DNA of 64,000 bases from NCBI GenBank assembly GCA_964570365.1, contig CAZMXT010000001.1, forward strand, positions 9,440 through 73,439, written 5' to 3'. The stretch's first letter is position 1. Every line of letters starts with the position of its first letter. Shown here in pieces: positions 3,684 to 63,636 of the stretch. The translations under genes and the position numbers were made by a program. The notes beneath the pieces are model-generated. The model saw only the letters and a program-made list of their open reading frames with translations. It was not told the DNA's origin and did not search any database. Origin of the DNA: an uncultured Pseudomonadales bacterium. GTDB lineage: Bacteria > Patescibacteriota > Microgenomatia > UBA1400 > PJMF01.

Positions 3684-3740
3684 AAAACAGATAGTAGACT
3701 TCTAAAGTTCTACAGTCAATACATCAAGGATATGTTGGAA

Positions 3741-46326: not shown

Positions 46327-46337
46327 GCTTTGCTTCT

Positions 46338-49523: not shown

Positions 49524-50344
49524 AAAAAACTTCCGTTCCACTGATATCAGTAACCATAGCTACTCATAACTCGCTCCGAACGATTGAGAAATGTCTCAGG
49601 TCAATCCAAGGACAGACCTACCCAAACCTTGAAGTGATTGTGGTGGATAGCCTCCAGTACGACTCAGTTCAACAATCCAAGTGCAAGAAAGTTATCTCTA
49701 AGTATGGTCGCTACATTCAGGATGGCCCTGAACGCAGCATTCAACGAAATCGAGGCATCAAAGCAGCGAAAGGTGAGTATGTTTTGGTTATCGACCAAGA
49801 TATGTACTTAACGCCAGAAGTTATCGCTGAGTGCTATCAAACCCTCACCCAAAACAAATATATTGCTTTGAATATCCCTGAGATTTCTATTGGAGAAGGG
49901 TTTTGGACCACTGTCGTTTCACTAGAAAGATATGTCAGTATTTATCTGGAGGATGGTGCCAATGAGTGCTGTCGCTTTTTCCGAAAGAAAGATGCGCTAG
50001 AACTTGGTGGGTATGATCCCAGCATCGTGGGTGCTGAGGACTCTGATTTTCATTACCGAATGCTTGCCAAAGGAAAAATTGGGAAGATAACCCATCACAT
50101 TTTGCATGATGAAGGCAAAACGAAATTTTGGAACCGCATCAAGAAAAAGTACTACTATAGCCAAGCATTTCGTGAGTATGTGAAGCGAAGACCAAACGTA
50201 GCAATAACTCAATTTTTTCCAATAAAGCCCGCATATTTTAAACACTGGAAAGTGTTAGCCAAACAGCCGATTGTGACACTAGGCATCGTAGCACTGCGTA
50301 CTGGAGAAGTACTGGCTGGAGGGATGGGAATTCTAATCAAATGA
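49520..50344 (+). CDS. GT2-family glycosyltransferase
   Basis: 'LISVTIATHNS...LEVIVVDSL' and 'VIDQDMYL' DxD region. Confidence 0.8.
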   Translation: MKKTSVPLISVTIATHNSLRTIEKCLRSIQGQTYPNLEVIVVDSLQYDSVQQSKCKKVISKYGRYIQDGPERSIQRNRGIKAAKGEYVLVIDQDMYLTPEVIAECYQTLTQNKYIALNIPEISIGEGFWTTVVSLERYVSIYLEDGANECCRFFRKKDALELGGYDPSIVGAEDSDFHYRMLAKGKIGKITHHILHDEGKTKFWNRIKKKYYYSQAFREYVKRRPNVAITQFFPIKPAYFKHWKVLAKQPIVTLGIVALRTGEVLAGGMGILIK

Positions 50345-51276
50345 CAAACCTAAAAAATAAAAAAGTATTAATTACTGGAATTACCGGATTTATCGGTGCT
50401 CATCTAGAAAAAAAACTCGCTAAGCTGGGGGCCGAAGTATTTGGTGTTTCTACTACTAAGGCGGGAAAGAATATCTTAACTGCAAATATCGCAGATTTTT
50501 CTCCCTTAAGCGAGTTTATTGCGAAACATAAGATCGATATCTGCTTTCACTTAGCAGGCGAATCTTTAGTTGAGTCAGGCCAAAAAGACCCATACCATAC
50601 CTTTAAAACGAATGTACTCGGCACCTTAAATGTTCTCGAATCAGCTAGGTTGCATTGTTTAGAAAAGATTGTTATTGCTTCGACCTCTCATGTGTATGGC
50701 AATAGCGTAGTTCCCTATTTGGAAGAATATCCGCCACGTCCCTCCCGACCGTATGAAACTTCCAAGACTGCTACTGACTTAATCACTCAGTCATATGCAA
50801 CTACTTTTAGCCTACCAGTTTTTATCCCTCGATTTACTAACATTTATGGACCAGGTGATCTGAATTTTAGCCGATTAATTCCTAAGATCATGAAAAATAT
50901 TGCTCTCAATGAAGCTGTATCGATGTGGGGTGGGGCAGCCAAACGAAGCTTTCTCTACATCGACGATGCGATTGAAGCCTACATTAAGTTAGCATTAGCT
51001 GACCCACAAAAGGTGGGCCACAACCGAATTTTTAACTTTGGACACGCCGAACTGGTTTCGATTAAGGAGCTGATTCAAAAAGCAATTCAGCTTTCAGGTA
51101 AAAAGATTCCTATTGAGGAATCAAATCAAGAACGACCCCTAGAAATTCCCGAACAATATGTCTCTTTCCAAAAAGCTCAAAATACTCTAGATTGGAGTCC
51201 GGAAGTGAGTTTAGAGCTAGGCTTACAAAAAACATATTCATGGTATTCTCAGTACTTGAGTCACAAGAAGGAGTAA
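50341..51276 (+). CDS. NAD-dependent nucleotide-sugar epimerase/dehydratase/reductase (extended SDR)
   Basis: 'KVLITGITGFIGAHLEKKL' Rossmann motif and 'YETSKTATD' YxxxK catalytic region. Confidence 0.8.
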   Translation: MTNLKNKKVLITGITGFIGAHLEKKLAKLGAEVFGVSTTKAGKNILTANIADFSPLSEFIAKHKIDICFHLAGESLVESGQKDPYHTFKTNVLGTLNVLESARLHCLEKIVIASTSHVYGNSVVPYLEEYPPRPSRPYETSKTATDLITQSYATTFSLPVFIPRFTNIYGPGDLNFSRLIPKIMKNIALNEAVSMWGGAAKRSFLYIDDAIEAYIKLALADPQKVGHNRIFNFGHAELVSIKELIQKAIQLSGKKIPIEESNQERPLEIPEQYVSFQKAQNTLDWSPEVSLELGLQKTYSWYSQYLSHKKE

Positions 51277-51284
51277 CTTTCAGC

Positions 51285-52376
51285 ATGAAATCATTAGCAA
51301 AATACTTTAAAAACAAAAAGGTCTTGATTTTTGGTGGCACTGGCTCCTGGGGAAGTGAGTTAGTCCGTCAGATGGTAAATGACTTTGAGTTGAGCGAGCT
51401 CAGGATTGTTAGTCGTGGCGAGCATAAACAGGTAGAAATGAGACACAGGTATCAAGGTGTCAAAAACTTGCGCTTTATTATTGGAGATGTTCGAGATCCA
51501 GAAGCAGTTGACTCAGCCATGAAGGGCGTTGATATTGTTTTTAACTTAGCTGCCCTGAAGCACGTGCCTGTTTGCGAAGAAAATTCTTGGGAATCAATCC
51601 TGACTAATATTCATGGCCCCCAAAACATAGTCACTGCAGCATTCAAGCACGAACCAGAAGCGGTGATCCAAGTCTCTACTGATAAAGCAGTTGATCCTTT
51701 AAATACTTATGGTTTTACCAAGGGCGTAGCTGAGCGAATCATGGTTGGTGCGAACTTTTCACCTGCCAAAGGAGCCAGAACCAAGTTTGTCTGTGTCAGG
51801 GGCGGAAATGTCTTAGGCACAAACGGCAGTGTTGTTCCCCTTTTTAAGCAGCTCATCCAGAACTTTAATAGAGTGCCAGTAACTCACAAGGACATGTCTC
51901 GTTTTTTAATGAGGGTTGAGGAAGCAATTTGTTTAGTGTTGGAAGCCACCTTAGAGTCGCAAGGTGGAGAAGTTTTTGTAATGCGCATGCCTGGAGCAAA
52001 GATCACGGACTTAGCTGCTGTTATGGTCAAAGAGCTCGGAAATGCAAAAACCAAGATTGAGTTTACGGGCATTCGCCCTGGGGAGAAAATGTATGAAGTT
52101 TTAGTTTCTCGAAATGAAGCACCGCGTACGTATCAAAAGGGCCAATACTACGTCATCCTGCCAGAAGTGGTGCACGCAGCATTTAAACGAGATAAGTTCT
52201 TAAAGTTACCATCTCTGGGCATGGAGGAATATAACTCTCAGAATACTCATCAACTTGATCAAAAAAGCTTAATCAAACTTCTGAAAACTGATGGTTGGTT
52301 AAAGCCTGATACTACTACCCCTTTTAGTACTATCTTTTCTCCTTACAAGGAAAAGGCAAACAAAGGATTAGTATGA
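51285..52376 (+). CDS. UDP-GlcNAc 4,6-dehydratase family protein (CapD/PseB/FnlA-type). ATG at 51285 is preceded by AAGGAG; the track ORF starts at 51192
   Basis: 'KKVLIFGGTGSWGSELVRQM' and 'VSTDKAVDPLNTYGFTKG' are signatures of Polysacc_synt_2 dehydratases. Confidence 0.75.
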   Translation: MKSLAKYFKNKKVLIFGGTGSWGSELVRQMVNDFELSELRIVSRGEHKQVEMRHRYQGVKNLRFIIGDVRDPEAVDSAMKGVDIVFNLAALKHVPVCEENSWESILTNIHGPQNIVTAAFKHEPEAVIQVSTDKAVDPLNTYGFTKGVAERIMVGANFSPAKGARTKFVCVRGGNVLGTNGSVVPLFKQLIQNFNRVPVTHKDMSRFLMRVEEAICLVLEATLESQGGEVFVMRMPGAKITDLAAVMVKELGNAKTKIEFTGIRPGEKMYEVLVSRNEAPRTYQKGQYYVILPEVVHAAFKRDKFLKLPSLGMEEYNSQNTHQLDQKSLIKLLKTDGWLKPDTTTPFSTIFSPYKEKANKGLV

Positions 52377-53488
52377 GTAAGTCTAAAAAATTAATTGAAA
52401 TTTCTAAACCAATCATAGAAAAAGAAGAGATTAATGCGGTGGTGAAGGTTTTGAAAAATCGACAACTTTCCCAGGGTCCCATCGTTAAAAACTTAGAAGA
52501 GATTTTTGCACGGTACTGCGGCACGAAGTATGCAGTCGCAGTCTGCAATGGTACTGCAACCCTGCACTGCGCGCTGCACGCGCTGAAAGTTACTGATCAA
52601 GATCAAGTAATTACCACTCCCTTCACTTTCGTTGCTACTGCCAATGCAATTTTGATGGAAAGAGCCAAAGTCGTCTTCAGTGACATTGAAGAGGAAACTT
52701 TTAATTTAGATCCTAAAAAGCTAGAAAGTAAAATCACCAAAAGAACCAAAGTTATCATGCCAGTAGATTTGTTTGGTCACATTTACGACGTTCAACAAAT
52801 TAACTCAATCGCTAAAAGACATCATCTCAGTATTGTAGAAGACGCTGCTCAGTCGGTCGCAGCGGAGTATAAAAATAAGAAAGCCGGGAACTTAGCAGAG
52901 GTAGCCAGCTTTTCACTATATGCAACCAAGAATATTACTTCCGGTGTGGGCGGCATGCTCACCACAAATAGTAAAGAAATTATGGAAAAGTGTAAACTTT
53001 TCCGTCACCACGGTCAGGACGAAAGCAAAGTCTATGAGTATATTGAGTTTGGCTACAACTACCGAATGATGGATATGATTGCTGTCATTGCCATTGAACA
53101 GATGAAAAAAATAGAGGACTTCACCAGCAAGCGCCGAGCAAATGCTGCTCTCTTTAACGAGGGCTTAAAAGATATTCAGGGCTTAATCACGCCGATTGAA
53201 AAACCAGGCTACAAGCACGTTTACCACCAGTATACGTTGCGAATTACCCCCGAATTTAAGCTCTCCAGAGATAAATTCATTGAGAAGCTCGCTGACAGAG
53301 GCATTATGGCTAAGATTTTTTATCCCAAGCCACTGCACTTATACCCACACTTTTTGGAGATGGGTTATAAAAAAGGTGACTTTCCAGTCGCTGAACGCTT
53401 AGCTAACGAAGTTGTTTCGATTCCAGTGCATCCTTTAGTTACTCCTAAACAGGCTGAGTTTATTATTCAAAGCATCAAAAAGATCTAG
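52373..53488 (+). CDS. PLP-dependent nucleotide-sugar aminotransferase (DegT/DnrJ/EryC1/StrS family)
   Basis: 'CGTKYAVAVCNGTATLHCAL' and the Lys-containing region 'SFSLYATKNITSGVGGML'. Confidence 0.9.
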   Translation: MSKSKKLIEISKPIIEKEEINAVVKVLKNRQLSQGPIVKNLEEIFARYCGTKYAVAVCNGTATLHCALHALKVTDQDQVITTPFTFVATANAILMERAKVVFSDIEEETFNLDPKKLESKITKRTKVIMPVDLFGHIYDVQQINSIAKRHHLSIVEDAAQSVAAEYKNKKAGNLAEVASFSLYATKNITSGVGGMLTTNSKEIMEKCKLFRHHGQDESKVYEYIEFGYNYRMMDMIAVIAIEQMKKIEDFTSKRRANAALFNEGLKDIQGLITPIEKPGYKHVYHQYTLRITPEFKLSRDKFIEKLADRGIMAKIFYPKPLHLYPHFLEMGYKKGDFPVAERLANEVVSIPVHPLVTPKQAEFIIQSIKKI

Positions 53489-53492
53489 TTCT

Positions 53493-53882
53493 ATGACGCT
53501 AACCAGGTTACCACTGCAAAAGCACCAGGACTCACGAGGCCTATTAATTCAGAATGATTATCCTGAAATTTTTGAGGAAATGAAACACTTCTTGGTCTCA
53601 TTTTCCGAACCCGGAGTAATCAGAGGGAATCACTATCACTTGCGAAAAAAGGAATGGTTTTTAGTCATTCAAGGAACAGCAGAACTACATCTGACAAACA
53701 CTAAGACTCACGAGCAAAGTACCTATGTGATTCAAGGCAGTCAGCCCGAGTTATTTCTGATGGAACCCTCTATTGCTCATGCCTTTAAAAACATTGGCTC
53801 AGATCAGTTGGTTTTTTTAGGTCTAGTAAATGAAGCTTTTGACGAGTCAGATCCCGATACAATTTCCTACCAGGTAATCTGA
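53493..53882 (+). CDS. WxcM/FdtA-like cupin (nucleotide-sugar 3,4-ketoisomerase family)
   Basis: 'QKHQDSRGLL' and 'GVIRGNHYH' match the FdtA/WxcM C-terminal-domain cupin motifs. 129 aa. Confidence 0.6.
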   Translation: MTLTRLPLQKHQDSRGLLIQNDYPEIFEEMKHFLVSFSEPGVIRGNHYHLRKKEWFLVIQGTAELHLTNTKTHEQSTYVIQGSQPELFLMEPSIAHAFKNIGSDQLVFLGLVNEAFDESDPDTISYQVI

Positions 53883-53896
53883 AAGTAAACACCTAC

Positions 53897-54277
53897 ATGC
53901 TTAACCGTGCTCTCAATACTCAGCTGACTGTCGGGGTCGATATTTGCGAAGTCGCTCGCTTCACTGAGTTTGAAGTGAACAGCGCTTTTACACAGAAAGT
54001 TTTCACCACTGCCGAATTAAATCAATGTCAAGCAAAGCCTAATTTAGCAGAAAGCTTAGCGGTCAGATTTGCGGGTAAAGAAGCAATCCAAAAATCTTTG
54101 GCGGAAAACATTCCCTACAATCAAATTGAGATCCTGACAGACGCACACGGTAAACCTAAAGCCAGCTTACTTGATCCCACTCTCAAAACCAAATATGATA
54201 TAGAAGTCAGTTTAAGTCACACCAAGACACTTGCCCAAGCTTTTTGCCTGACTCAATCCTTAGTAACTCAATCATAA
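53897..54277 (+). CDS. acpS: 4'-phosphopantetheinyl transferase, AcpS-type (holo-carrier-protein synthase)
   Basis: 'VGVDICEVARF', 'RFAGKEAIQKSL' and 'EVSLSHTKTLAQAF' parallel the AcpS motifs. 126 aa. Confidence 0.7.
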   Translation: MLNRALNTQLTVGVDICEVARFTEFEVNSAFTQKVFTTAELNQCQAKPNLAESLAVRFAGKEAIQKSLAENIPYNQIEILTDAHGKPKASLLDPTLKTKYDIEVSLSHTKTLAQAFCLTQSLVTQS

Positions 54278-54285
54278 AGGACCTT

Positions 54286-54546
54286 ATGACCCAACAAAAC
54301 CTAGATGCTAATCAAACTAAATTGGTGGAACTCTTTAGCAATGTTTTCCCAAGCCTAACCAAAGATAGTTTTAATCTAGATCAAGATCGAACTACGTTTG
54401 AGAACTGGGACTCTCTGAGTCATATGCAGCTAGTCTCAGAAATTGAACAAAGCTTTAATGTGTCATTTGAGATGGAGGAGATTGTCGACATTAGCAAGCC
54501 TGCTGACTTCCTTGCCTTAATTACTAAGAAGAAAGCTCAAGCATGA
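54286..54546 (+). CDS. Acyl/aminoacyl carrier protein (phosphopantetheine-binding). ATG at 54286 is preceded by AAAGGA
   Basis: 'FENWDSLSHMQLVSEIEQSF' matches the carrier-protein DSL serine attachment motif. 86 aa, acidic. Confidence 0.75.
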   Translation: MTQQNLDANQTKLVELFSNVFPSLTKDSFNLDQDRTTFENWDSLSHMQLVSEIEQSFNVSFEMEEIVDISKPADFLALITKKKAQA

Positions 54547-56051
54547 TGGTGGATTTCTCCAAGATGAATACCATACCCGACTTCTTAGAGAAAAATGCTC
54601 AGCAATTTCCCGACAAACCAGCGCTTGTTTTTGATAAAAAGTCATTTAGTTATCAAGAATTAAACTCTCAAAGTGAGTTAGTTGCCAATTTTTTGCTTTC
54701 CAAAACCAAGCCGCAAGACGTGGTTGCAATTCTTCTTCCAAATAGTGCAGATTTTGTAATCAGTTACTTTGGCGTTTTAAAAGCTGGGTGTATTGCACTA
54801 CTTATTCCTCCTAATATTTCTGATGACAAGCTCAAGTTCCAGGTAGCAAAAACCCAGCCAAACCTTATCCTAACTGAATCCAAGTACAGCGCTAAAATTG
54901 AACGTGCCAATTTAGGTCCCAAACTTGAAGTGATCGACACCCAGACGCTCTTAGGCATTCAGCTCTCAACCGACCAACAACCTAGAACAATTGCCCCCAC
55001 AGACACCTCGACTATTATCTTTACTTCTGGGACTACTTCTGAACCGAAGGGCGTTCAGCTTCAACACACAAATGTGGTAAATGCCACCAAAAACATTGTA
55101 GAGTTCCTCAACCTAACTCCCCAAGAAATAGATGTAAATATTTCTGCTCTTTCTCATTCTTTTGGTCTTGGCCACTTGCACTGCTTCTTGGCTGTTGGCG
55201 GAACTACAGTATTGTTCCGGGATGCAATCAACTTAAAAGAAATTCTCAATGCCATCTCTGCAAATCATGCTACTACTTTGGGTGCAGTGCCGGCTATTCT
55301 TCGCTTACTGCTCAACAATTTTCGAACAGAATTTCAGGAACATGGTAAAAGTTTACGCATTGTCCAAACCAATACCTCTCCTTTAGAAAAAGAGCTCATT
55401 GAGGGAATTCTCAATACTTTACCAAGTACAAACTTTTCTTATTACTATGGCTTAACCGAAGCATCACGCTCCACCTTCATTACCTTTAACCAACATGCTG
55501 ACAAACTCTCGAGCATCGGCCAAGCTTCCCCAAATGTTCAAGTGGAAGTACGAGACGCACGTGATCAGGTCTGCTCTCCTGGCGAGCTGGGCGAAATTTG
55601 TATCAAAGGTAAAATGGTGATTCAGGAGTACTGGCAAAATCCCAGTGCTTCAGAAAAAGTAAAAGCTGGCTGGTTTCACTCAGGAGACGTCGGCTATATG
55701 GATCCTGAAGGGTTCCTGTACTACAAAGGTAGGTATAATGATCTCATTAATGTTTCTGGAGAAAAAGTTTCACCTGAAGAAGTAGAGGATTTAATTAAGA
55801 AAGTTCCGGGTGTAACTGATGCTGCTGTAATTGGAATTCCAGATAAAATACTTGGGGAAGTTATCAAAGCTTTTATCTCGGTTTCTGATAAGGAGTTTGA
55901 CGTTCATCTAGTCACACAACTCTGTCGGCAAAAACTAGAAAGCTATAAGGTTCCCCGAGAAGTTGAGATTATTAAAGAAATTCCGCGAACCGATAATGGC
56001 AAGCTCCAGCGCAATAAACTCAAAAAAAGCTACACAGAATTAATTTACTAG
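54543..56051 (+). CDS. AMP-dependent synthetase/ligase (ANL adenylating enzyme, acyl-carrier-protein ligase-like)
   Basis: 'IIFTSGTTSEPKGV' AMP-binding motif, 'YGLTEA' and 'GWFHSGDVGYMDPEGFLYYKGR' core motifs. Confidence 0.9.
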   Translation: MMVDFSKMNTIPDFLEKNAQQFPDKPALVFDKKSFSYQELNSQSELVANFLLSKTKPQDVVAILLPNSADFVISYFGVLKAGCIALLIPPNISDDKLKFQVAKTQPNLILTESKYSAKIERANLGPKLEVIDTQTLLGIQLSTDQQPRTIAPTDTSTIIFTSGTTSEPKGVQLQHTNVVNATKNIVEFLNLTPQEIDVNISALSHSFGLGHLHCFLAVGGTTVLFRDAINLKEILNAISANHATTLGAVPAILRLLLNNFRTEFQEHGKSLRIVQTNTSPLEKELIEGILNTLPSTNFSYYYGLTEASRSTFITFNQHADKLSSIGQASPNVQVEVRDARDQVCSPGELGEICIKGKMVIQEYWQNPSASEKVKAGWFHSGDVGYMDPEGFLYYKGRYNDLINVSGEKVSPEEVEDLIKKVPGVTDAAVIGIPDKILGEVIKAFISVSDKEFDVHLVTQLCRQKLESYKVPREVEIIKEIPRTDNGKLQRNKLKKSYTELIY

Positions 56052-56056
56052 GATCT

Positions 56057-57109
56057 ATGGACATTCTCAACTTTCTACCTAAAGCTTACTTTCCAAATCG
56101 AGTTTTCTTTGGCGAAAAATCTACTCTATTCCTGAGAACCATTCAAACAGAAAAAAGATTATTTGTAATATCTCAATCCTTTAACTTTGCTAGCCCTCAG
56201 CTTGTTGTTGAGCTGGGTGCTACCCCCGAAAATACATGGACCCACAGTGGGGAACCGAGCCGAGAAGATGTTCAGGCATTAGAAATGAAAGTTGCAGAGC
56301 AATCGCCTACTTGGATCATTGCAGTAGGTGGTGGCTCAATTCTTGACTTGGTCAAAGTTGTCAAGAAAAGGCACCCGATTCAGATGCTAGCCATACCGAC
56401 TACGTTAGGCTCTGGCACTGAGGTTAGTCAGCACGTAGTCTATGTCGAAGAAAATCGTAAAAAAGTAGAAAGTGACTACAAGTTCCTGCCTGAGGTCGTC
56501 TTACTTACCCCCAAGTACCTCAACTCATTAAGTAGTGAACAGATCGTTTATCAGTCAATTGATGCCTTAGCACATGGCTTAGAAAGCCTAGTCTCTAAGA
56601 TGGCCAACCCTTTCTCTGATTTATTTGCCACCTCTAGTATTAAGCTGATTCATGAACAATTGATGAGCATACCTACAACTGAGCTGCCCTCATTAGCCCA
56701 ACTCCATCAACTCCAACTAGGTGGTTTTATGGCGGGATTAGCGCAAAGCAGTGCAGCCACCGGCCTTACCCACTCCTTTGCCCACCACTTTGGTCCCAAG
56801 TTGAAACTGCCTCATGCTCAAGCTGTCGCCAGCTTTCTGATTGATGTTGTAAAACTTAATACTGCCCACACCGATAAATATCAAAAATTAAAAGCAGCTC
56901 AAAGCTTCGGAAATCAAGATCCTGTCACTGCATTAGAAAAGTTGTTTGAAAAACTGAAGATTCAAGTTACTTCTTTTACTTTAGCTGATGATATTGATGA
57001 ATCAGCTCTGGCTATTCAAAAAGATGTCTGCAGCTTAACTAACCCCTACCCTCCGTCTCTAGAAGAGATCACAGCAATCATCCAACAGCACAGAACGGTG
57101 CTAGGATAA
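56057..57109 (+). CDS. Iron-containing (group III) alcohol dehydrogenase family protein
   Basis: 'IIAVGGGSILDLVK' GGGSxxD motif and metal-binding His cluster region 'LTHSFAHHFG'. Confidence 0.8.
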   Translation: MDILNFLPKAYFPNRVFFGEKSTLFLRTIQTEKRLFVISQSFNFASPQLVVELGATPENTWTHSGEPSREDVQALEMKVAEQSPTWIIAVGGGSILDLVKVVKKRHPIQMLAIPTTLGSGTEVSQHVVYVEENRKKVESDYKFLPEVVLLTPKYLNSLSSEQIVYQSIDALAHGLESLVSKMANPFSDLFATSSIKLIHEQLMSIPTTELPSLAQLHQLQLGGFMAGLAQSSAATGLTHSFAHHFGPKLKLPHAQAVASFLIDVVKLNTAHTDKYQKLKAAQSFGNQDPVTALEKLFEKLKIQVTSFTLADDIDESALAIQKDVCSLTNPYPPSLEEITAIIQQHRTVLG

Positions 57110-57113
57110 GGAT

Positions 57114-58211
57114 ATGTCAGCAGTACTTAATGAGTTATTAGCATGCTCACCATATGAACTTTCCCAAGCTGAGAAAGAGCGAGTTTTTATGCCAGCTCTG
57201 AGAGAAGCAGCTCTGTGGCACTATCAGGCATCTCCAGAGTTTAAAAAAATCTGCCAAGGAAAAAATTTTGATCCTGCACAAGAGTTTGAGATCATTGATT
57301 TACCATATATCCCAGTACCCATTTTTAAAAAATTTGACCTGCGCAGCGTGCCTGATTTAGAAATCATTAAAACTTTATACTCCAGCGGCACCTCAGGAAA
57401 TCCCAGTAAGGTTTTTATTGATCAAGCAACAGCAGATGCTCAGGGAAAAGCCTTAACTAAAATCTTGACCAGTTTTTTGGGAAAAGAGCGACGACACTTT
57501 CTGATTTTTGACTCACCAAACTCAGTTTCCAGTCGCTCTGGCGAGCTCTCTTCTCGAGGTACTGCTATTCGCGGTATTCTTACTATGGCTAAACGCTTTA
57601 CTTTTTTACTAGATGATGAGCTAAAGCTAGATCAAGAAAAGTTAGAAAAAACCCTGAATGAGCTCAATCCCGAAGAGCCTGTCTGCTTTTTTGGTTTTAC
57701 CTGGTTAATCTACAACGTTTATCTGCAGTATGGTAAACAGCTTGCCGAGGCGCTCAGCAAAGTAAAGAATTCTGATACTGTCATCCTTCATATTGGTGGC
57801 TGGAAGAAACTTCAAGACCGGGCAGTTTCTAAAGCGCAGTTCAATCAGGATCTGAGCACTACATTTGCTCTTCCTAAGTCCTCAGTGATTGACTTCTACG
57901 GGATGACTGAGCAGCTCGGCACAGTCTACCCAGATTGTTCGGCAGGACACAAACATGCACCCGCTTACGCAGAGATCATTATCAGAAATCCAGAAACTCT
58001 TCTTACTCAACCAAATAACCAACTAGGATTTATTCAGCTGGTCAGTCCGATACCCCATAGTTATCCCGGGATTAGCATCTTATCTGAAGACATGGGCATT
58101 CTACTGGGTACAGATGACTGTCCTTGCGGACGAAAAGGGAAGTACTTTGAGTTTAAGAAACGCTCCGAGGGAGCAGAAGTCAAAGGCTGTGGTGATGCCT
58201 TAGATCTATAA
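57114..58211 (+). CDS. LuxE-like acyl-protein synthetase
   Basis: 'IPVPIFKKFDLRS...LYSSGTSGNPSKV' parallels LuxE 'IPVFPTSVFKFTRL...FTSSGTNGLKSQV'. 365 aa. Confidence 0.7.
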   Translation: MSAVLNELLACSPYELSQAEKERVFMPALREAALWHYQASPEFKKICQGKNFDPAQEFEIIDLPYIPVPIFKKFDLRSVPDLEIIKTLYSSGTSGNPSKVFIDQATADAQGKALTKILTSFLGKERRHFLIFDSPNSVSSRSGELSSRGTAIRGILTMAKRFTFLLDDELKLDQEKLEKTLNELNPEEPVCFFGFTWLIYNVYLQYGKQLAEALSKVKNSDTVILHIGGWKKLQDRAVSKAQFNQDLSTTFALPKSSVIDFYGMTEQLGTVYPDCSAGHKHAPAYAEIIIRNPETLLTQPNNQLGFIQLVSPIPHSYPGISILSEDMGILLGTDDCPCGRKGKYFEFKKRSEGAEVKGCGDALDL

Positions 58212-58215
58212 GTAT

Positions 58216-59502
58216 ATGACTCCACCAAGCCTCATCTTCCAAGGTAGTATCAAAAATGAAGCAAATGTAGACCTACAATCTGTTATCGTCCAACTTCGTC
58301 AACAGCTTGACCAACTGCATAGCTACCCTATTGAAGAAATTCTGCTGTTCTTTGACCAATTGGTGGAGCAGTGGCAGTCCTCAGGTCTAGCCAAAAAGAA
58401 TCCCTACCTCAAGAATATCTCAGAGTTTTTAGTTAAACAACATTTAGTTACTACTTTGCAGACTGCATTGCGTGGCAAGGTTTCAGTCTTAGATCAATTT
58501 GAGGATCTTGGCGACTATAAAATGATTTTTCATGCCCAACCTCGAGGATTGACTGTTCATTGGTTGGCAGGCAATGTGACAGTATTGGGTTTATTTTCGA
58601 TCTTCTCTGCACTAATAACCAAAAATGTCTGTTTAGTCAAAGCCTCATCACGAGGTCATGAGAACTTGGTGGCTATATTAGACACACTTAGGGAAGTAAA
58701 AACTGGACAGATTAATGGCCAAGACTTTGCCAATGCCATTGCCGTCGTCCTCGTTGATCGCCAGGATCAAGCCAGTCATCAAGTTCTCTCTGAGAATGCA
58801 GATATCAGAATTGCCTGGGGTGGCAAAGAAGCCGTCGAAACTATTATGCAGCTAAGTAAGAGCCCATTTTGCGAAGATTTAATTTTTGGTCCGAAATACT
58901 CATACGCCTTAATCGATAACACTTCTCTAGTCACTAAGCAAAAGCTGCTAGCCCAGCGTTTAGCTGTGGATGTCTCTGTGTTTGATCAGTATGCCTGTTC
59001 CTCGCCCCATACTGTCTTTATTGAAGAAAAAAATGAGGGTGAATCTCTGGCCTTTGCACAGGAATTAGCTAAACAGTTGGAACTAGTGGAGAGAGCGTTT
59101 TTACCTAAAGAAGCAATAGATTCTGGCAAAGCTGCTCAGATTATTAGTTTGCGCAGTGAGTATCAAATCACTGGAACGGTTATATGCTCACAAGATACCA
59201 AGTGGACTGTCATTCACACTACAGAGAAGGGCTTAGCTGATAGCTGTTTTTCTCGAGTCATCTTTGTCAAACCAGTAAAGAATATCGATGAGCTACATGC
59301 GTATAATAATCGACAGAAGCAGACTTTGAGCTGTGCTTTATCTTATGAGAATAAGTTGAAGTACCTGGATAAGCTCACCTTAAGTGGCATTGACCGATGT
59401 CCTGACCTGGGGTACGCCACCTACTTTGAGTCACCTTGGGATGGCATGTTTATTTTTGATCGTTTGGTTCGGTGGGTAAGCACTTATAAGGAGGCTGTAT
59501 GA
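58216..59502 (+). CDS. LuxC-like acyl-CoA/acyl-ACP reductase (aldehyde-forming)
   Basis: Its length (428 aa) and overall region conservation with the LuxC family are consistent with the call. It is immediately downstream of, and translationally coupled to, the LuxE-like gene. Confidence 0.6.
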   Translation: MTPPSLIFQGSIKNEANVDLQSVIVQLRQQLDQLHSYPIEEILLFFDQLVEQWQSSGLAKKNPYLKNISEFLVKQHLVTTLQTALRGKVSVLDQFEDLGDYKMIFHAQPRGLTVHWLAGNVTVLGLFSIFSALITKNVCLVKASSRGHENLVAILDTLREVKTGQINGQDFANAIAVVLVDRQDQASHQVLSENADIRIAWGGKEAVETIMQLSKSPFCEDLIFGPKYSYALIDNTSLVTKQKLLAQRLAVDVSVFDQYACSSPHTVFIEEKNEGESLAFAQELAKQLELVERAFLPKEAIDSGKAAQIISLRSEYQITGTVICSQDTKWTVIHTTEKGLADSCFSRVIFVKPVKNIDELHAYNNRQKQTLSCALSYENKLKYLDKLTLSGIDRCPDLGYATYFESPWDGMFIFDRLVRWVSTYKEAV

Positions 59503-59906
59503 CACTCTCTGTTCATCACCTTGCCAAGGTTGTAGAGAGTATTGAGCAAGCATATGCCCAGTATCAACAGCTCGGATATCAAACAGCAGCAGGATTTTTA
59601 GAACCTCAGGATGATCTGGAACAGAAAGTCAAAGTCGGTGTAATGGTGAGTGGCAACTTGACACTAGAGTTGCTAGAACCTTTATCTGAAACTAGTCCTG
59701 TTTACAATTTTTTAAGCAGCGGGGGCGGTTTTCACCACTTGTGCTATCAGACTGAAGATTTGCAAGCGAGCATAACTGAAATTGAACATAAAAAACTGGC
59801 GAAACGAGTTACGGCTGTTACCACTTCAGTTTGGGATGGGCGCCCTGTCGTTTTTTTTCTTACTGCTAACCAAGAGTTATTTGAAATTATTGGACCAAAA
59901 TTATGA
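59499..59906 (+). CDS. VOC/glyoxalase-family protein, methylmalonyl-CoA epimerase-like
   Basis: 'VHHLAKVVESIEQAY...GGGFHHLCYQTED' paired His/Glu metal-site pattern. 135 aa. Confidence 0.6.
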   Translation: MTLSVHHLAKVVESIEQAYAQYQQLGYQTAAGFLEPQDDLEQKVKVGVMVSGNLTLELLEPLSETSPVYNFLSSGGGFHHLCYQTEDLQASITEIEHKKLAKRVTAVTTSVWDGRPVVFFLTANQELFEIIGPKL

Positions 59907-60634
59907 ACAAAAACCCATATATACATCCATCAGTCCAGATGGGTGATAATTTTCAACATGAATTTAATCTTGTCATCTATGAAGGTGTCCAAATTGGTAA
60001 CAATGTTTCTTTAGGAAATAACGTCATTATTTATCCTCATACAGTGATTCGTGATAACGTGGTGATCCTAGATAACTGCGTGATTGGAAAACCATTACGA
60101 CTGAGCGCTAGGAGTAATCGTAAACCGCCTTTATTACCTGGTTTGCAGATAGGCAGCGATGTAACGATAAGTACCGGCAGCATTCTTTATACTGGCTCTG
60201 TGATTAGCGAAGACGTCTACATTGCCGATAACGTCAATATTCGAGAGGAATGCTCGATTGGTGCAAGTTCAACAATCGGTAAAATGGTTTCCATTGAGTT
60301 CAAAGTCACAGTTGGACATCATACTCGGATTATGGACTGTTCACAGATCACTGAGTACACTGAGATTGGCAATCAAGTTTTTATTGGTCCAGATGTTTCG
60401 TTCTGTGTTGATGCCTCCTTTGGACGAATTTCTAACGCCAGTAATAAAGTTGTTATTAAAGATAAAGCCATGATTGGCGGCAACGCAACCATCGGTCCAG
60501 GTGTGACTGTAGAAGAAAATGCTCTGGTTGCAATGGGCGCAGTGGTAATAAAAAATGTTCCGACTCAAAAAGTCGTCTTAGGCAATCCAGCTCGTGTGCT
60601 TTGGAATGTAGATCAAAAGTTAATTTTGGAATAA
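59903..60634 (+). CDS. Hexapeptide-repeat (LbH) acyltransferase, LpxA/PglD-like
   Basis: Continuous hexapeptide repeats 'VQIGNNVSLGNNVIIYPHTVIRDNVVILDNCVIG' and a C-terminal 'VVLGNPARV'. Confidence 0.8.
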   Translation: MNKNPYIHPSVQMGDNFQHEFNLVIYEGVQIGNNVSLGNNVIIYPHTVIRDNVVILDNCVIGKPLRLSARSNRKPPLLPGLQIGSDVTISTGSILYTGSVISEDVYIADNVNIREECSIGASSTIGKMVSIEFKVTVGHHTRIMDCSQITEYTEIGNQVFIGPDVSFCVDASFGRISNASNKVVIKDKAMIGGNATIGPGVTVEENALVAMGAVVIKNVPTQKVVLGNPARVLWNVDQKLILE

Positions 60635-60635
60635 G

Positions 60636-61790
60636 ATGCAGTTCCCCAAAAACTATCAGGTTTTACTCGTTTCTCATTATACTGAAACTGCCGGTTTAGT
60701 GCATAAATTCCAGCAGTATTTTGAGAAGAAAAAAATTCATCCGACGATGTTACTTCATCCACTTTTTCCTGGTAGTGCATTACCCAGTCTGGTGAGAGTT
60801 AAAGAGCAAGAAATTACGTATAAAGTTCATTCTGTACTCCAGTACCCTCTTGAGATGTTCTTTAGCTTAGGATTGTTGCAAAAAATCAAGTTTGGCCGCT
60901 CATCAACTGATTTAGCAGTTTGCTTTGATCCACTTTCATTTGTCCACACCTATTTTTTAAGAATTTTTTTCAAGATAGATAAAATTATTTACTATAATCT
61001 TGACTACTCTAAAAGCCGCTTTGCCAATCCTCTCGCCAACTTTATCTACCAACGAGTGAATGTTTTTGCTTTTCAGAGAAGTGATTACTTCTTCTCAGCC
61101 ACTGAGCAATTTATGATAGACCTTGATCCAGAGCAAAAACTTCAGCATCGGAGTTTCTTTCTTAAACACGTCGTAGATACTTCAGCAGTTAAGCTGCGTC
61201 AAAAAAAGGAATCTCAAACTTTTGTCTATGCAGGAAGCTTTGGTGAAACCACTAACTTCACTTCCCTGCTAAAGGCCCTCCAGAAACTCTCGCAGGAAAA
61301 GTATACATTTTCATTTGATCTTTATGGTGGCGGCAAGCACCTTGAAGAAGTTGTCCAAGCAGTCAAAAGATTGAAGCTCAAAAACAATGTCCATTTCAAA
61401 GGGCCAGTCAGCAACCTTGAATTGGTGAATACTATTTTGCCGAAGTACAGTTTTGGTGTCTGTCCCTACAAGATCAAGGGTGAACCAGGTGCTCCAGATC
61501 ACATGTTCTACGGTAATGAGCTCACCTCTAAGCTAATCGAGTACCTAGCTGCTGGACTGCCTATCCTTAGTACCCCCTTGCTAGATGCTTTCGAAGTCAT
61601 TGAGAAAGAAAAAATTGGTTTCTTAGTTCAGAGCAGTCAAGACTGGTACTTGGTGATTAAAAAATTGCTTCACCAACCTAAAATACTCATCTCTTATCAA
61701 CAAAAAGCCCTCAAATATTCGTCAAACTACGATATGGAGAAGGTACTTGATCCCCTTTTCAGTCACATTGTCTCTGAAAGACGAGTATGA
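60636..61790 (+). CDS. Putative divergent GT-B glycosyltransferase (GT4-like C-terminal half)
   Basis: C-terminal 'YAGSFGETTNFTSLL...KLIEYLAAGLPILSTP' resembles the GT-B donor-binding domain. The N-terminal half is not recognisable. Confidence 0.4.
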   Translation: MQFPKNYQVLLVSHYTETAGLVHKFQQYFEKKKIHPTMLLHPLFPGSALPSLVRVKEQEITYKVHSVLQYPLEMFFSLGLLQKIKFGRSSTDLAVCFDPLSFVHTYFLRIFFKIDKIIYYNLDYSKSRFANPLANFIYQRVNVFAFQRSDYFFSATEQFMIDLDPEQKLQHRSFFLKHVVDTSAVKLRQKKESQTFVYAGSFGETTNFTSLLKALQKLSQEKYTFSFDLYGGGKHLEEVVQAVKRLKLKNNVHFKGPVSNLELVNTILPKYSFGVCPYKIKGEPGAPDHMFYGNELTSKLIEYLAAGLPILSTPLLDAFEVIEKEKIGFLVQSSQDWYLVIKKLLHQPKILISYQQKALKYSSNYDMEKVLDPLFSHIVSERRV

Positions 61791-62803
61791 CAGAGCCGCT
61801 AATCTCAGTCATCATAGTCAACCACAACGGGAAAGAATGGTTAAAAGCGTGCTTGGGTTCAGTCTTTAGCCAAGACTACCCGTCTTTTGAAGTGATTTTA
61901 ATAGATAATGCTTCTGATGACGAGAGTGTTTCATTTACTCAGGCGCATTTCCCCAAGGTAAAAATTATTTCTGAGAAAACGAACCACGGCTTTGCGCAAG
62001 GAAATAACATTGGCTTTGCTCACGCTAAAGGTGAGTATATTTTTCTGTTAAATAACGACACTGTTGTCGAGAAGAATTGCCTTACAAAACTCAAGCAGGC
62101 CTTTGTCGAGATTCCTAAGTTAGGAATAGTCCAACCTAAAATTATTTTATTGGATGAACCTGAGCTTTTAGACCAAGTTGGCTCCTACTGGACCAATACT
62201 ACATACCTCTACCACTTTGGGTTTAGAAAACCTCACCACCTAGCTATTTATAATCACTCTAGACAAGTTTTCTCAAGTATGGGTGCTGCCATTATGATCA
62301 GCAGAGAAGTGATTGAAAAGGTTGGTCTTTTTGATGCCCGGTTTTGGTGTTACTACGAAGAAACTGACTTCTGCCACCGAGCCTGGATGCTTGGCTACGA
62401 GAGCTGGTACTATCCACATACCGTTGTTCTCCATTCTAAAGGCGCAACTTCTACTAGTTTTCGCCGATCATTTGTAATTTTTCATAGCTATAAGAATAAA
62501 TTGCGAAGTTTCATAAAAAACTTTGAGGTTAAGAACTTGATACTTATTTTACCCACCTTTTTCCTGCTCAGTCTGAGCCTTGAGTCATACCTCCTATTAA
62601 CCACAGGATCCTGGCAGACTTTTAGAGGTTTTTGGAGCTCTCTTTTTTGGAATGTGGCGAACATTAGAGAAACCCTAGCTGAAAGAAAAATTATTCAGAC
62701 TACCCGGAGAGTTTCAGACAAAGAGATTTTAAGTAAAGTTACCAAGAATCCAAGATTTTCTTATTACAACTTAGCTATTGGGCCTGCGAAGTATCAAGAT
62801 TAG
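61787..62803 (+). CDS. GT2-family glycosyltransferase with C-terminal TM segments
   Basis: 'LISVIIVNHNGKEWL...FEVILIDNASDDES' and 'LLNNDTVV' DxD region. Confidence 0.85.
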   Translation: MTEPLISVIIVNHNGKEWLKACLGSVFSQDYPSFEVILIDNASDDESVSFTQAHFPKVKIISEKTNHGFAQGNNIGFAHAKGEYIFLLNNDTVVEKNCLTKLKQAFVEIPKLGIVQPKIILLDEPELLDQVGSYWTNTTYLYHFGFRKPHHLAIYNHSRQVFSSMGAAIMISREVIEKVGLFDARFWCYYEETDFCHRAWMLGYESWYYPHTVVLHSKGATSTSFRRSFVIFHSYKNKLRSFIKNFEVKNLILILPTFFLLSLSLESYLLLTTGSWQTFRGFWSSLFWNVANIRETLAERKIIQTTRRVSDKEILSKVTKNPRFSYYNLAIGPAKYQD

Positions 62804-63600
62804 TTTTTTGATTTCTTCTTTTTTCTCATGACTACGTGGTAACGCTCAGCAAATCTATCATCATTGTCTAGGCTATCAATTACAAAATCAATTGTATTAG
62901 TAGTGAAGAAAATGAATGGAGCAGCTACTGAAAGAATAACTTTTGCAACTAAGTTTCCTTCCATAATTTTGCGAATCAGATACTGATTAGTCATACTCGC
63001 CATGGTGGTTCCAAAACAACAATAAGAAAAGACACGCTCAACTTCCATACCAGTTTGGCGAGCTAGCTTAGCATAGCCTCCCCTGGTGAAGCGTTGAAAA
63101 TCATACTCTGTTCCTCCGTGTTCACGGTACAGAAAGGGCATAGTAGTCACACACAAGCCACCATTTTTTAAAACTCTACTGGCCTCTTTGAAAAATTTAA
63201 GTGGATCATGAATATGCTCCAATACCTCTGCACTGTAGTAGACGTCAAAGGTATTATCTTTAAAAGGCAAATTCATGGCATCGCAAACTTTATCAATTTT
63301 ACTAGAGTCTTTAGCTCTACCATACAAAATTTCAGTAATTCTTCCCAAGGAGTTAATATACTTCGTTTGCTTAGCAAAAAGCTCATCCCAATTAGAATAG
63401 TCAGTAGCCACGTACTTTTTTATTCGAGGGTTGGTACGCATGGCCAACTCTTTTTTTGTGCAGTTCCCTGCTCCAGTTTCGAGAACTTTCCCTTTGAATA
63501 AGGGAATTAATTCTGCACTTGCTCGCTGTTCATTACGAATATCCAACCAGTGGGGGTAAAAAGGAGTATGCGTTAGAAGTTCAATAACAGAAAAGAACAT
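62800..63600 (-). CDS. Class I SAM-dependent methyltransferase
   Basis: 'VLETGAGNC' SAM motif I and 'FDVYYSAEVLEHIHDP' motif II/post-II. Confidence 0.8.
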   Translation of the reverse strand: MFFSVIELLTHTPFYPHWLDIRNEQRASAELIPLFKGKVLETGAGNCTKKELAMRTNPRIKKYVATDYSNWDELFAKQTKYINSLGRITEILYGRAKDSSKIDKVCDAMNLPFKDNTFDVYYSAEVLEHIHDPLKFFKEASRVLKNGGLCVTTMPFLYREHGGTEYDFQRFTRGGYAKLARQTGMEVERVFSYCCFGTTMASMTNQYLIRKIMEGNLVAKVILSVAAPFIFFTTNTIDFVIDSLDNDDRFAERYHVVMRKKKKSKN

Positions 63601-63636
63601 AGTACCTATTTTGATATTCTGAGGGCTCTCTTTTTC

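Follow-up and report, generated by a model that had tools for sequence, protein, structure and literature searches.

A Probable Glycan-Tailoring Cassette with Its Own Carrier Protein and Phosphopantetheinyl Transferase in the Surface-Glycan Operon of a Probable Patescibacterium, and Its Relatives in Bacteria and Archaea

Introduction

Why should an operon for a bacterial surface glycan contain an acyl carrier protein (ACP), and why should the enzyme that primes this carrier be encoded beside it? The question is raised by a 64,000-nucleotide stretch of contig CAZMXT010000001.1 (GenBank assembly GCA_964570365.1; hereafter the window, in whose own numbering its coordinates are given), from an uncultured bacterium whose GTDB lineage is Patescibacteriota. 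There, six consecutive genes between positions 53897 and 59502 were originally predicted to encode a 4'-phosphopantetheinyl transferase (PPTase), a carrier protein, an AMP-forming ligase, an iron-dependent alcohol dehydrogenase (Fe-ADH) and relatives of the bioluminescence proteins LuxE and LuxC. The most likely role of this set is, in our view, to assemble a small acyl group on a carrier protein that it encodes itself and to attach it to an amino sugar of the surface glycan. Serotypes, receptors for phages and recognition by the immune system are all determined by N-acyl groups on amino sugars, the tetronate of the cholera O1 antigen being the classic case.

Cassettes of this type are not a new kind of system; they have been known from their sequence since 1995 and have been annotated in flagellin glycosylation islands (FGIs). 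What is new, relative to the literature that we searched, is a variant with a built-in PPTase and a VOC-fold protein, the broad occurrence of the cassette in the Candidate Phyla Radiation (CPR), in DPANN archaea and in ammonia-oxidizing archaea, and the association of the PPTase with the CPR- and archaea-type versions. The finding does not amount to biology of a categorically new kind, and the chemistry that we put forward is a proposal.

Results and Discussion

Gene Content and Extent of the Cassette

The proteins of the window were searched against the Pfam (hmmscan) and NCBIfam profiles, and the gathering or equivalog cut-offs were applied. The six genes lie on the plus strand exactly where they had been placed by the original prediction, and every product scores above the Pfam threshold of the family to which it had been assigned. 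They encode an AcpS-type PPTase of 126 aa (53897..54277; PF01648, 52.6 bits against a cut-off of 25), a carrier protein of 86 aa that is a homologue of Vibrio cholerae RfbK (54286..54546; PF00550, 22.8 bits, cut-off 20.8), an adenylating ligase of the ANL superfamily of 502 aa, homologous to RfbL (54543..56051; PF00501, 252.6 bits, plus AMP-binding_C), a group III Fe-ADH of 350 aa, homologous to RfbM (56057..57109; PF25137 (ADH_Fe_C), 90.9 bits, and PF00465, 63.8 bits), a LuxE-like ATP-dependent acyl-protein synthetase of 365 aa (57114..58211; PF04443, 232.7 bits, cut-off 24.9) and a LuxC-like acyl-thioester reductase of 428 aa (58216..59502; PF05893, 253.3 bits, cut-off 21). The matches to the LuxE and LuxC families, one of the checks proposed with the prediction, are highly significant (E 9e-69 and 5e-75). 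Its right-hand boundary at 59502, however, had been drawn too short: a VOC-fold protein of 135 aa (59499..59906, plus strand; PF13669 (Glyoxalase_4), 55.7 bits) and a hexapeptide (LbH) nucleotide-sugar N-acyltransferase of 243 aa (59903..60634, plus strand; Hexapep, 93.6 bits) are chained on by 4-nt overlaps and extend the set to 60634.

These eight genes belong to a series of 15 consecutive genes, from 49520 to 62803, whose intergenic distances range from -4 to +14 nt and which overlap by 4 nt, in the ATGA manner, at six junctions. From this spacing and these overlaps we infer that the 15 genes form one operon, and translational coupling is a reasonable supposition. At least 8 contigs, obtained in independent assemblies of different samples, show the same locus arrangement, and hence it is not an assembly artefact. 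We consider it reasonably probable that the segment from 53897 to 60634 is a unit, a glycan-tailoring cassette of the RfbKLMNO type, which shares its operon with acceptor-sugar genes and glycosyltransferases. The glycan locus (46001-64000) has a G+C content of 0.39-0.42, compared with 0.42-0.47 in the remainder of the window; a lowered G+C content is typical of surface-polysaccharide loci that are exchanged horizontally.

Homology and Co-Linearity with the V. cholerae O1 Tetronate Genes

The reference was an 8-kb locus of V. cholerae ATCC 14035 (O1; L013), retrieved with GTTTCACTGAACAGATGGG, which the literature describes as a standard O1-rfb primer. This locus ends 635 aa into rfbN, and the comparison covers RfbK, RfbL, RfbM and residues 1-635 of RfbN; the C-terminal 190 aa of this protein, like RfbO, lie outside the locus. 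Its minus strand carries open reading frames (ORFs) of 80 aa (K, 4450-4692), 471 aa (L, 3029-4444) and 374 aa (M, 1896-3020), and an open frame of 635 aa (N, from 1905 downwards). In BLASTP alignments the carrier protein matches RfbK (31% identity over 36 aa, E 2.8e-7, WDSLSHM against WDSLAHM), the ligase RfbL (29% over 481 aa, E 2e-56) and the Fe-ADH RfbM (28% over 315 aa, E 1.5e-29); the LuxE-like protein matches residues 8-370 of RfbN (38% over 371 aa, E 5e-84) and the LuxC-like protein residues 405-635 (31% over 236 aa, E 5e-34, the alignment being cut at the end of the locus). The co-linearity that had been claimed with rfbKLMNO thus holds from K to N, where the proteins are homologous and their order is identical, but the assignment of one function to each gene from K to O was slightly wrong, because RfbN is a LuxE-LuxC fusion with a LuxE-like N-terminal and a LuxC-like C-terminal half.

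RfbN is a protein of 825 aa encoded by a gene of 2478 nt (PMC9915646), and the tetronate set corresponds to VC0248-VC0252 (PMC3441752). In wbeL, wbeM and wbeN mutants the O1 antigen is lost or altered (PMC3441752; PMC9915646); the glycan is free of fatty acid, and the acid that it does carry, a C4 dihydroxy acid, is amide-linked to an amino sugar (PMC3441752). The two loci differ in that LuxE and LuxC are separate genes in the window, to which a PPTase and a VOC protein have been added, and in that the acceptor pathway is of the UDP-N-acetylhexosamine (UDP-HexNAc) kind, with PseB- and PseC-like enzymes, rather than the GDP-perosamine pathway of V. cholerae. They are alike in their setting, a surface-glycan locus beside the gene of a 4-amino-6-deoxy-sugar aminotransferase, in the order of the five families, and in having a transferase at the end of the set, LbH in the window and RfbO in V. 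cholerae. In the 1995 work of Morona and colleagues, RfbO is reported to be an acetyltransferase-like protein and not a LuxE, and the tetronate (2,4-dihydroxybutyrate) was reportedly proposed to derive from a C4 dicarboxylate. The LbH protein is expected to be the functional counterpart of RfbO.

A second family of relatives is found in the flagellin islands. The cassettes of Aeromonas group II and of the Enterobacteriaceae FGIs comprise ACP, FabG, AMP-ligase, LuxE and LuxC, and their published descriptions contain no PPTase. As in the window, carrier, ligase, LuxE and LuxC stand between pse genes (PseB, PseC and others), a layout also seen in the more distant metagenomic loci described below as group C; unlike the window, these islands have FabG-like reductases of the SDR family in place of the Fe-ADH, and neither PPTase nor VOC protein.

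The Carrier Protein and Its PPTase

The ORF of the carrier is open from 54244, and the ATG at 54286, which gives 86 aa, is the preferred start; the gene call of the Joint Genome Institute has the same 86-aa form, and the homologues measure 74-87 aa. The predicted phosphopantetheine-attachment serine is S43, within W41-D42-S43-L44 at the start of helix 2. The modifiable serine that the prediction had called for is present, and of 78 homologous carriers 76 keep the WDS[LF] motif.

The PPTase exceeds the cut-off of TIGR00556 (67.9 bits, cut-off 45.35) and falls under that of every holo-ACP synthase equivalog (TIGR00516, 51.6 against 59.8; NF0008xx/NF0112xx, far under), scores which suggest that it is not an equivalog of the housekeeping holo-ACP synthase. 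It is strongly divergent, with 3 word-sharing relatives among 5.8 billion proteins; a word prefilter fails on so short and fast-evolving a protein, and the PPTases of related cassettes were recovered with iterated profile models on the fetched loci. Like the housekeeping AcpS, it is a protein of ~120 aa with a PF01648 domain and intact Mg- and CoA-binding motifs (G13-V-D15...E18..RF, FT..E, R57-FAGKEA..K66 and S105-LSH108). Across 13 aligned bacterial and archaeal cassette PPTases the common AcpS motifs read G-x-D...E..RF, FT..E, RFA-x-KEA..K and S-L/I-S-H. Unlike the housekeeping enzyme, it is found in a glycan cassette next to a carrier that does not serve fatty-acid synthesis, rather than among fatty-acid or pdxJ-type neighbors. 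It would be dedicated to the adjoining carrier protein. A longer form occurs in the Uhrbacteria locus (L002, 12836-13678), where the PPTase has 280 aa and consists of an AcpS-type domain and a C-terminal extension of ~150 aa that has no family assignment.

Catalytic Residues and the Likely Size of the Substrate

The ligase has the motifs TSGTTSEPKG (161-170) and GK (486-487) and presumably puts an acid onto the carrier protein; its top solved match is the adenylation domain of a nonribosomal peptide synthetase (NRPS), and its nearest free-standing solved relatives include activators of dicarboxylates, namely MenE, oxalate-CoA ligase and malonyl-CoA synthetase. In the Fe-ADH, inspection reveals the nucleotide motif GGGS (91-94) and, with DALAH (169-173), H239 and H253, metal ligands of the D169/H173/H239/H253 type. 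Among solved structures its closest relatives are enzymes for C1-C4 substrates, and it would turn the aldehyde made by the LuxE- and LuxC-like proteins into an alcohol.

The residues of these two proteins were mapped by alignment to the cryo-electron microscopy structure of the LuxC-LuxE complex (7xc6) and interpreted according to PMC9157457, in Photobacterium phosphoreum numbering. The LuxE-like protein aligns with 7xc6_E at E 5.8e-23; its K231 and R350 correspond to the adenylation residues Lys238 and Arg355, and its C359 to the acylation site Cys364, all three being invariant across eleven homologues, RfbN included (alignment A1). The LuxC-like protein aligns with 7xc6_A at E 1.6e-29; its C261, Q369 and D409 are the counterparts of Cys296, Gln402 and Asp443, and none of the three varies among 60 cassette homologues (median 429 aa). 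The cassette thus shares both families, catalytic residues included, with the bioluminescence complex, and ATP-dependent conversion of an acid to an aldehyde is probably common to the two.

The cassette LuxC is, in contrast, about 50 aa shorter than the bioluminescence protein and differs from it in the acyl cleft. The residues at the entry of the cleft are consistently replaced in the 60 cassette proteins (Ser166 by Leu, Thr169 by Phe, Phe297 by Ser or Asn and His442 by Trp), and in the window these positions are L124, F127, S262 and W408. P. phosphoreum LuxC is inactive when it carries the substitution S166F or H442R, an effect that its authors explain by obstructed binding of the substrate (PMC9157457). 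The oligomerization and cleft element P460-P488, which in LuxC forms, together with the neighboring subunit, the lining of the >40 Å myristoyl cleft in its distal part (PMC9157457), has no counterpart; the alignment breaks off at residue 446 of the chain, just 5 residues before the end of the protein. The same chemistry in a smaller pocket is what these features suggest. The equivalog scores are also far too low for a bioluminescence protein (NF052244 for LuxE, 88.8 bits against a cut-off of 550; NF052251 for LuxC, 142.6 against 750). Because of the shorter chain, the missing element, the altered entry and the failed equivalog scores, myristate is an unlikely substrate. We rejected the idea of a true lux fatty-acid reductase, as these equivalog scores fail and luxA, luxB and luxD genes are absent. 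The relatives of the ligase, the C1-C4 relatives of the Fe-ADH and the smaller LuxC pocket are all compatible hints of a small substrate, of which none identifies the acid.

The LbH Transferase and the VOC Protein

The original prediction had supposed that the acyl group is attached to an amino sugar, and the gene at 59903-60634 supplies the enzyme that would perform this attachment. The best solved relative of the LbH protein is QdtC (3fs8, E 1.3e-21, residues 23-236), followed by the sugar N-acetyltransferases WxcM-like, WlbB and VioB, with secondary matches to LpxD and LpxA at about 1e-5 to 1e-7 (LpxD ~5e-6); against the NeuD/PglB/VioB family it scores 99 bits, under the cut-off of 160.8. 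It likely catalyzes the acyl transfer step onto the amino sugar. Like the QdtC, WlbB and PglD-type enzymes it has the LbH fold and is encoded after a sugar pathway that contains an aminotransferase, an arrangement known from the Qdt, Fdt and Pgl systems. Unlike them, it is genetically tied to a carrier-protein set that builds an acyl group, and this tie suggests a donor other than acetyl, possibly borne by the ACP.

The VOC protein matches the methylmalonyl-CoA epimerase model TIGR03081 (E 9.5e-17, 61.8 bits, under the cut-off of 114.95), and its solved matches, at E 1e-14 to 1e-11, are glyoxalase I, which is slightly better, and human methylmalonyl-CoA epimerase. We regard it as a probable fold relative of the epimerase and an accessory of the cassette; that it might epimerize the alpha-carbon of a thioester-bound acyl group is speculative. 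The VOC gene follows immediately after LuxC in the Uhrbacteria locus and in 11 of the tabulated non-redundant related loci.

A Proposed Route and Its Rivals

The order of the steps, the acyl-ACP donor, the nature of the acid and the position of the acceptor would, under our proposal, be as follows. The PPTase would convert the 86-aa apo-carrier to its holo form at Ser43, whereupon the ANL ligase would adenylate a small carboxylic acid, for which a dicarboxylate is the most plausible candidate, and form a thioester with the carrier. The LuxE-like protein would then activate the second, free carboxylate with ATP and hold the acyl group on its C-terminal Cys359, from which it would pass to Cys261 of the LuxC-like protein and be reduced with NAD(P)H to the aldehyde; the Fe-ADH would take the aldehyde to the alcohol and so give an omega-hydroxyacyl thioester, the configuration of whose alpha-carbon the VOC protein may adjust. 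Finally, the QdtC-like LbH protein would put this acyl group, which is presumably short and hydroxylated, on the amino group of a UDP-linked amino-6-deoxy-HexNAc, the product of the PseB-like, cupin and PseC-like enzymes discussed below, and the N-acylated sugar would go into the surface glycan. A start from two carboxylates is proposed because a single chain would otherwise have no need of a thioester-forming ligase and a carboxylate reductase together, which is also the reasoning traditionally applied to tetronate.

In its essentials, a carrier-borne acyl group transferred to an amino sugar of the surface glycan, this is the interpretation originally offered, and it draws support from the homology and co-linearity with RfbK to RfbN, from the family membership and catalytic residues of the proteins, from the LbH enzyme and from the recurrent linkage to LbH and amino-sugar genes. 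Sugar-nucleotide genes are present in 23 of the 27 related loci that have at least 5 kb of flanking sequence and belong to the closer groups A and B defined below; in the same two groups, 32 of 41 loci have an LbH gene no more than 1.5 kb away from the LuxC end. The linkage to sugar genes in related loci, another of the checks proposed with the prediction, thus holds.

A number of considerations pull the other way. The tetronate pathway of V. cholerae is itself a proposal of 1995 derived from sequence and backed just by knock-out phenotypes, so that the analogy carries over a hypothesis and not a fact, and we found no biochemical characterization of any enzyme of this cassette type in the literature searched. 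No perosamine (GDP-mannose) genes occur in the 64-kb window; the acceptor, and probably the acyl group, therefore differ from those of V. cholerae, and an identical product is unlikely. The solved LbH sugar N-acyltransferases use acyl-CoA and not acyl-ACP. Enzymes of the LuxC family can directly reduce acyl-ACP or acyl-CoA (bioRxiv 10.1101/2025.08.11.669332), and hence the wiring through two carboxylates is not the sole option. Finally, since the Nitrosopumilaceae-type version has no Fe-ADH, a hydroxyl end-product is not universal.

Three rival explanations have to be weighed against this proposal. In the first, the ligase and carrier would activate a scavenged long-chain fatty acid with which the LbH protein N-acylates the amino sugar in the manner of LpxD, giving a lipid-anchored or lipidated glycan, while LuxE, LuxC and Fe-ADH separately yield a fatty aldehyde or alcohol. 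The authors of the Aeromonas and Enterobacteriaceae studies read their cassettes in this sense, as "fatty acid synthesis" genes, and speculated on a lipid added to the flagellin glycan. The best NCBIfam match of the ligase, under the cut-off, is a subfamily model named "long-chain-fatty-acid--CoA ligase", the LbH protein has its secondary matches to LpxD and LpxA, and Patescibacteria are thought to recycle host lipids (PMC12455944). On the other side, the sole glycan that has been chemically tied to this type of cassette, that of V. cholerae O1, contains a C4 dihydroxy acid but not a fatty acid; the LuxC-like protein is devoid of the distal part of the fatty-acyl cleft and has bulkier residues at its entry; the relatives of the Fe-ADH are short-chain enzymes; the LbH protein is much closer to sugar N-acetyltransferases (QdtC, E 1e-21) than to LpxD (~5e-6); and two unconnected branches would have to be accommodated within one tightly coupled operon. 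We thus consider a fatty-acylated sugar unlikely.

In the second, the LuxC-like protein would directly reduce the acyl-ACP to an aldehyde and the Fe-ADH would take this to an alcohol, the free aldehyde, alcohol or hydroxy-acid being put to some other use, perhaps in an ether, an acetal or an alkyl substituent, while LbH would simply N-acetylate with acetyl-CoA. It gains some plausibility from TabE of the LuxC cluster, a stand-alone acyl-ACP/CoA reductase, and from the reduction of acyl-CoA by LuxC in vitro (bioRxiv 10.1101/2025.08.11.669332), as well as from the solved LbH relatives, which use acetyl-CoA, and from the archaeal form without Fe-ADH, which would end at the aldehyde. But it would render the LuxE-like protein redundant, although its Lys, Arg and acyl-carrying Cys are invariant and LuxE and LuxC are fused in V. 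cholerae; the V. cholerae product is amide-linked to an amino sugar; and LbH travels with the cassette even where the other sugar genes vary. Such a reductive release is, in our estimation, improbable.

The third, a carrier-dependent secondary-metabolite or signaling pathway that merely neighbors the glycan genes, could invoke the naming of LuxE-family genes of marine ammonia-oxidizing archaea as candidates for quorum sensing by the fatty-acid diffusible signal factor (PMC11442133) and the NRPS adenylation domain as top solved match of the ligase, but it is very hard to credit given that the cassette is embedded by stop/start overlaps between the aminotransferase/cupin pair and the LbH and glycosyltransferase genes, that linkage to DegT, PseB, NeuB, GFO and LbH recurs across phyla and domains (the Nanoarchaeota STT3 locus included), that the V. 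cholerae homologues are needed for the O antigen, and that condensation, ketosynthase and thioesterase genes are lacking. The gene context of the Nitrosopumilaceae LuxE argues likewise for glycan tailoring over quorum sensing.

Related Loci and the Distribution of the PPTase

Homologues of the LuxE-like protein with 53-59% identity were found in Patescibacteria records (Shapirobacteria, Beckwithbacteria, Uhrbacteria), and others with ~50% identity in Micrarchaeota, Nanoarchaeota and Nitrosarchaeum. The gene order of these loci varies around a common theme. Beckwithbacteria, among which GCA_001776045.1 bears the cassette, have PPTase-ACP-ligase-FeADH-LuxE-LuxC within a NeuB/CMP-transferase/DegT locus, and Uhrbacteria ACP-FeADH-ligase-LuxE-LuxC-VOC-PPTase-NeuB; unlike the window, both carry genes of the NeuB or CMP-transferase type. 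The Micrarchaeota locus (L017, 445-6757) has the gene order of the window plus LbH, and the Nanoarchaeota locus (L016, 10001-15852) reads LuxE-LuxC-LbH-PPTase-ACP-ligase-FeADH and adjoins GFO and DegT genes and an STT3 oligosaccharyltransferase, its LbH being a 216-aa gene between LuxC and PPTase that was assigned by an iterated hidden Markov model (HMM). In the Nitrosarchaeum metagenome-assembled genome GCA_018333495.1 (L015, 7936-13059) a divergent PPTase is followed by ACP-ligase-LuxE-LuxC and a PglD-like LbH, with DegT and epimerase genes adjoining and no Fe-ADH.

To these were added metagenomic loci, from a contig scan with the LuxE alignment that gave 461 confirmed relatives, of which the best 80 were kept. 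The loci were analyzed by ORF calling and iterated HMMs, each ORF taking its best-scoring family, and were checked against the precomputed Pfam annotation, because fusion partners (LuxE-LuxC of L085 and L090; DegT-SDR of L002) are drawn into the LuxE and DegT models by iteration. We divided the loci in which the carrier gene was captured into three groups by the identity of their LuxE to that of the window. In group A (at least 51%), laid out as in the window, the PPTase is present in 9 of 10 loci, and in group B (44-51%), laid out as in Nitrosarchaeum, in 40 of 45, so that it accompanies the carrier in 49 of the 55 loci of the two groups together. Group C (<44%, with values of about 39-42%) is composed of ACP, SDRs, ligase, LuxE and LuxC, with two LuxE-LuxC fusions that are the closest to RfbN. 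No PPTase match was found in any of its 11 loci, V. cholerae included, even at E <= 10, nor is there one within 3.3 kb upstream of V. cholerae rfbK. The association is clean: the PPTase goes with the closer, CPR- and archaea-type versions and is absent from the RfbN-like and SDR-containing ones. The original prediction had singled out the dedicated PPTase as notable; it is a lineage-correlated feature of the cassette and not a one-off.

Within group B, 35 loci have a LuxE 55-86% identical to that of Nitrosarchaeum. The Nitrosopumilaceae-type cassette (L015, and group B loci such as L036, L053, L058 and L076) has no Fe-ADH and a divergently transcribed PPTase; its product may stop at the aldehyde, or another reductase may take over. 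The archaeal contigs (L015, L016, L017 and ~35 marine loci among L030-L089) contain an AcpS-type PPTase and a carrier with the WDS motif inside the cassette. In group C, the loci L090 (4791-19045), L087, L092 and L095 have 2-3 copies of an ACP-SDR-SDR unit, some of them after an LbH gene, around the ligase, LuxE and LuxC; the V. cholerae-like fusions of L085 and L090 are 48% identical to RfbN.

Why a PPTase?

Patescibacteria are reported to be without fatty-acid biosynthesis, acpP being among their few horizontally acquired genes (PMC12455944), and for Archaea PMC6138646, citing Lombard et al. 2012, has it that "no ACPs are known". The cassette would bring its own PPTase because host lineages without housekeeping AcpS and ACP would need one. 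That such an enzyme is needed wherever the host has no AcpS is the simplest reading of the correlation across the loci that we fetched. The phyletic pattern would then be that of a pathway which packages its own cofactor-loading enzyme on entering hosts without one (CPR, DPANN and Thaumarchaeota, believed to have no ACP-dependent fatty-acid synthesis). Three points temper this correlation: the group C metagenomic contigs, which have no PPTase, are also without taxonomic assignment, 64 kb is too little for the absence of fab and acpS from the host to be judged, and the host of the window is a probable rather than a certain member of the CPR. The nearest relatives of its cassette are from the CPR, whereas the named matches of its RuvB, at ~70% identity against 79-82% for the best, are a mixture of Woesebacteria, Pacebacteria, Saccharimonadia and two metagenome-assembled genomes labeled as proteobacterial; the window yielded no tRNA or Rfam match of use for its placement.

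We find it fairly credible that the PPTase-bearing cassette is self-sufficient and transferable between bacteria and archaea. An archaeal carrier-protein system is indicated, of which we found no description in the literature searched. We are more hesitant, and lean slightly to the negative, about the stronger idea that the PPTase-carrier module has moved among CPR bacteria, DPANN archaea and Nitrosopumilaceae and is, in those cells, the sole carrier-protein pathway, devoted solely to glycan decoration. If this were true, it would contradict the textbook view of archaea without ACP, symbionts without fatty-acid synthesis would still require CoA for a cell-surface function, and the "LuxE" genes of the marine ammonia oxidizers would serve glycan tailoring and not quorum sensing. 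Because all the components, PPTase included, are contained in ~6.7 kb, the logic by which LuxE and LuxC would lead from carboxylate to alcohol on a carrier protein is testable in Escherichia coli.

The Probable Acceptor Sugar

The genes that precede the PPTase in the operon, all on the plus strand, would make the sugar that is acylated. An NAD-dependent sugar epimerase/dehydratase/reductase of the SDR family, of 311 aa (50341..51276), overlaps by 4 nt with the gene of a family 2 glycosyltransferase (GT2) upstream and is separated by 8 nt from the next gene downstream; its best NCBIfam matches (CDP-glucose 4,6-dehydratase-like, 158 bits; LegB-like, 135) are all under the cut-offs, and it probably belongs to the acceptor-sugar branch. 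Then comes a PseB/FnlA-like UDP-GlcNAc 4,6-dehydratase of 363 aa (51285..52376; TIGR03589 PseB, 296 bits, cut-off 408; FnlA, 241 bits), whose identical counterpart in another locus (L004) carries the Pfam domain Polysacc_synt_2 and which would yield a 4-keto-6-deoxy-HexNAc intermediate. To this intermediate a PseC-like pyridoxal phosphate-dependent aminotransferase of 371 aa (52373..53488; DegT_DnrJ_EryC1, 395 bits; TIGR03588 PseC, 340 bits, cut-off 423.5) would add the amino group that is acylated later. A small cupin of 129 aa (53493..53882; PF14667, 88 bits; PF05523 FdtA, 31 bits) resembles the C-terminal domain of WbcJ/CapF-type enzymes (NF047837 WbcJ, residues 251-368, E 5e-18) and probably acts as a keto-sugar epimerase or as a 3,4-ketoisomerase, by which the stereochemistry or the position of amination would be fixed. 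The PseC-like match suggests that the amine is at C4; C3 is possible if the cupin is a ketoisomerase.

A nonulosonic acid was considered as the acceptor and rejected for the window. Only the PseB- and PseC-like members of the full pseudaminic acid pathway (PseB, C, H, G, I and F) were found, both under their equivalog cut-offs, and homologues of NeuB and of CMP-sugar synthetases are absent from the whole 64 kb; the acceptor is hence taken to be an amino-6-deoxy-HexNAc.

At the other end of the operon, joined to the chain by a 1-nt gap and a 4-nt overlap, are two plus-strand glycosyltransferases of families GT4 (384 aa) and GT2 (338 aa) (60636..62803), identified by the Pfam annotation of the identical L004 genes and, for GT2, by NCBIfam. 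Two minus-strand genes converge on this end, a class I methyltransferase (62800-63600) and a 585-aa carbamoyltransferase that runs past the window (63637-64000; Carbam_trans_N/C in L004). The Uhrbacteria locus and L061 likewise have a carbamoyltransferase gene close to their cassettes. The two genes hint at an additional O-methyl or O-carbamoyl decoration of the glycan.

Other Envelope Genes of the Window

A large share of the window serves the cell surface. Upstream of the cassette, within 24389-26419, 33134-36357 and 43046-44593 (all on the minus strand), are envelope genes that encode a DUF4012 protein, a PMT-family GT-C glycosyltransferase, a Wzy_C/O-antigen-ligase-like protein (a weak match) and a multi-pass membrane protein of 515 aa with no family match. 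A peptidoglycan and division cluster with MurA and a penicillin-binding protein contains, on the minus strand, a protein of 899 aa (9515-12214) in which the only assigned part is a Mur-ligase middle domain from residue 574, after a long N-terminal part, and beside it an 815-aa fusion (14612-17059) of a complete MurC-type ligase (Mur_ligase, _M, _C) with MurB (FAD_binding_4, MurB_C). A separate hexapeptide acetyltransferase of 210 aa (37340-37972, minus strand), unrelated to the LbH protein of the cassette and outside it, lies between RuvB and a GT2 gene.

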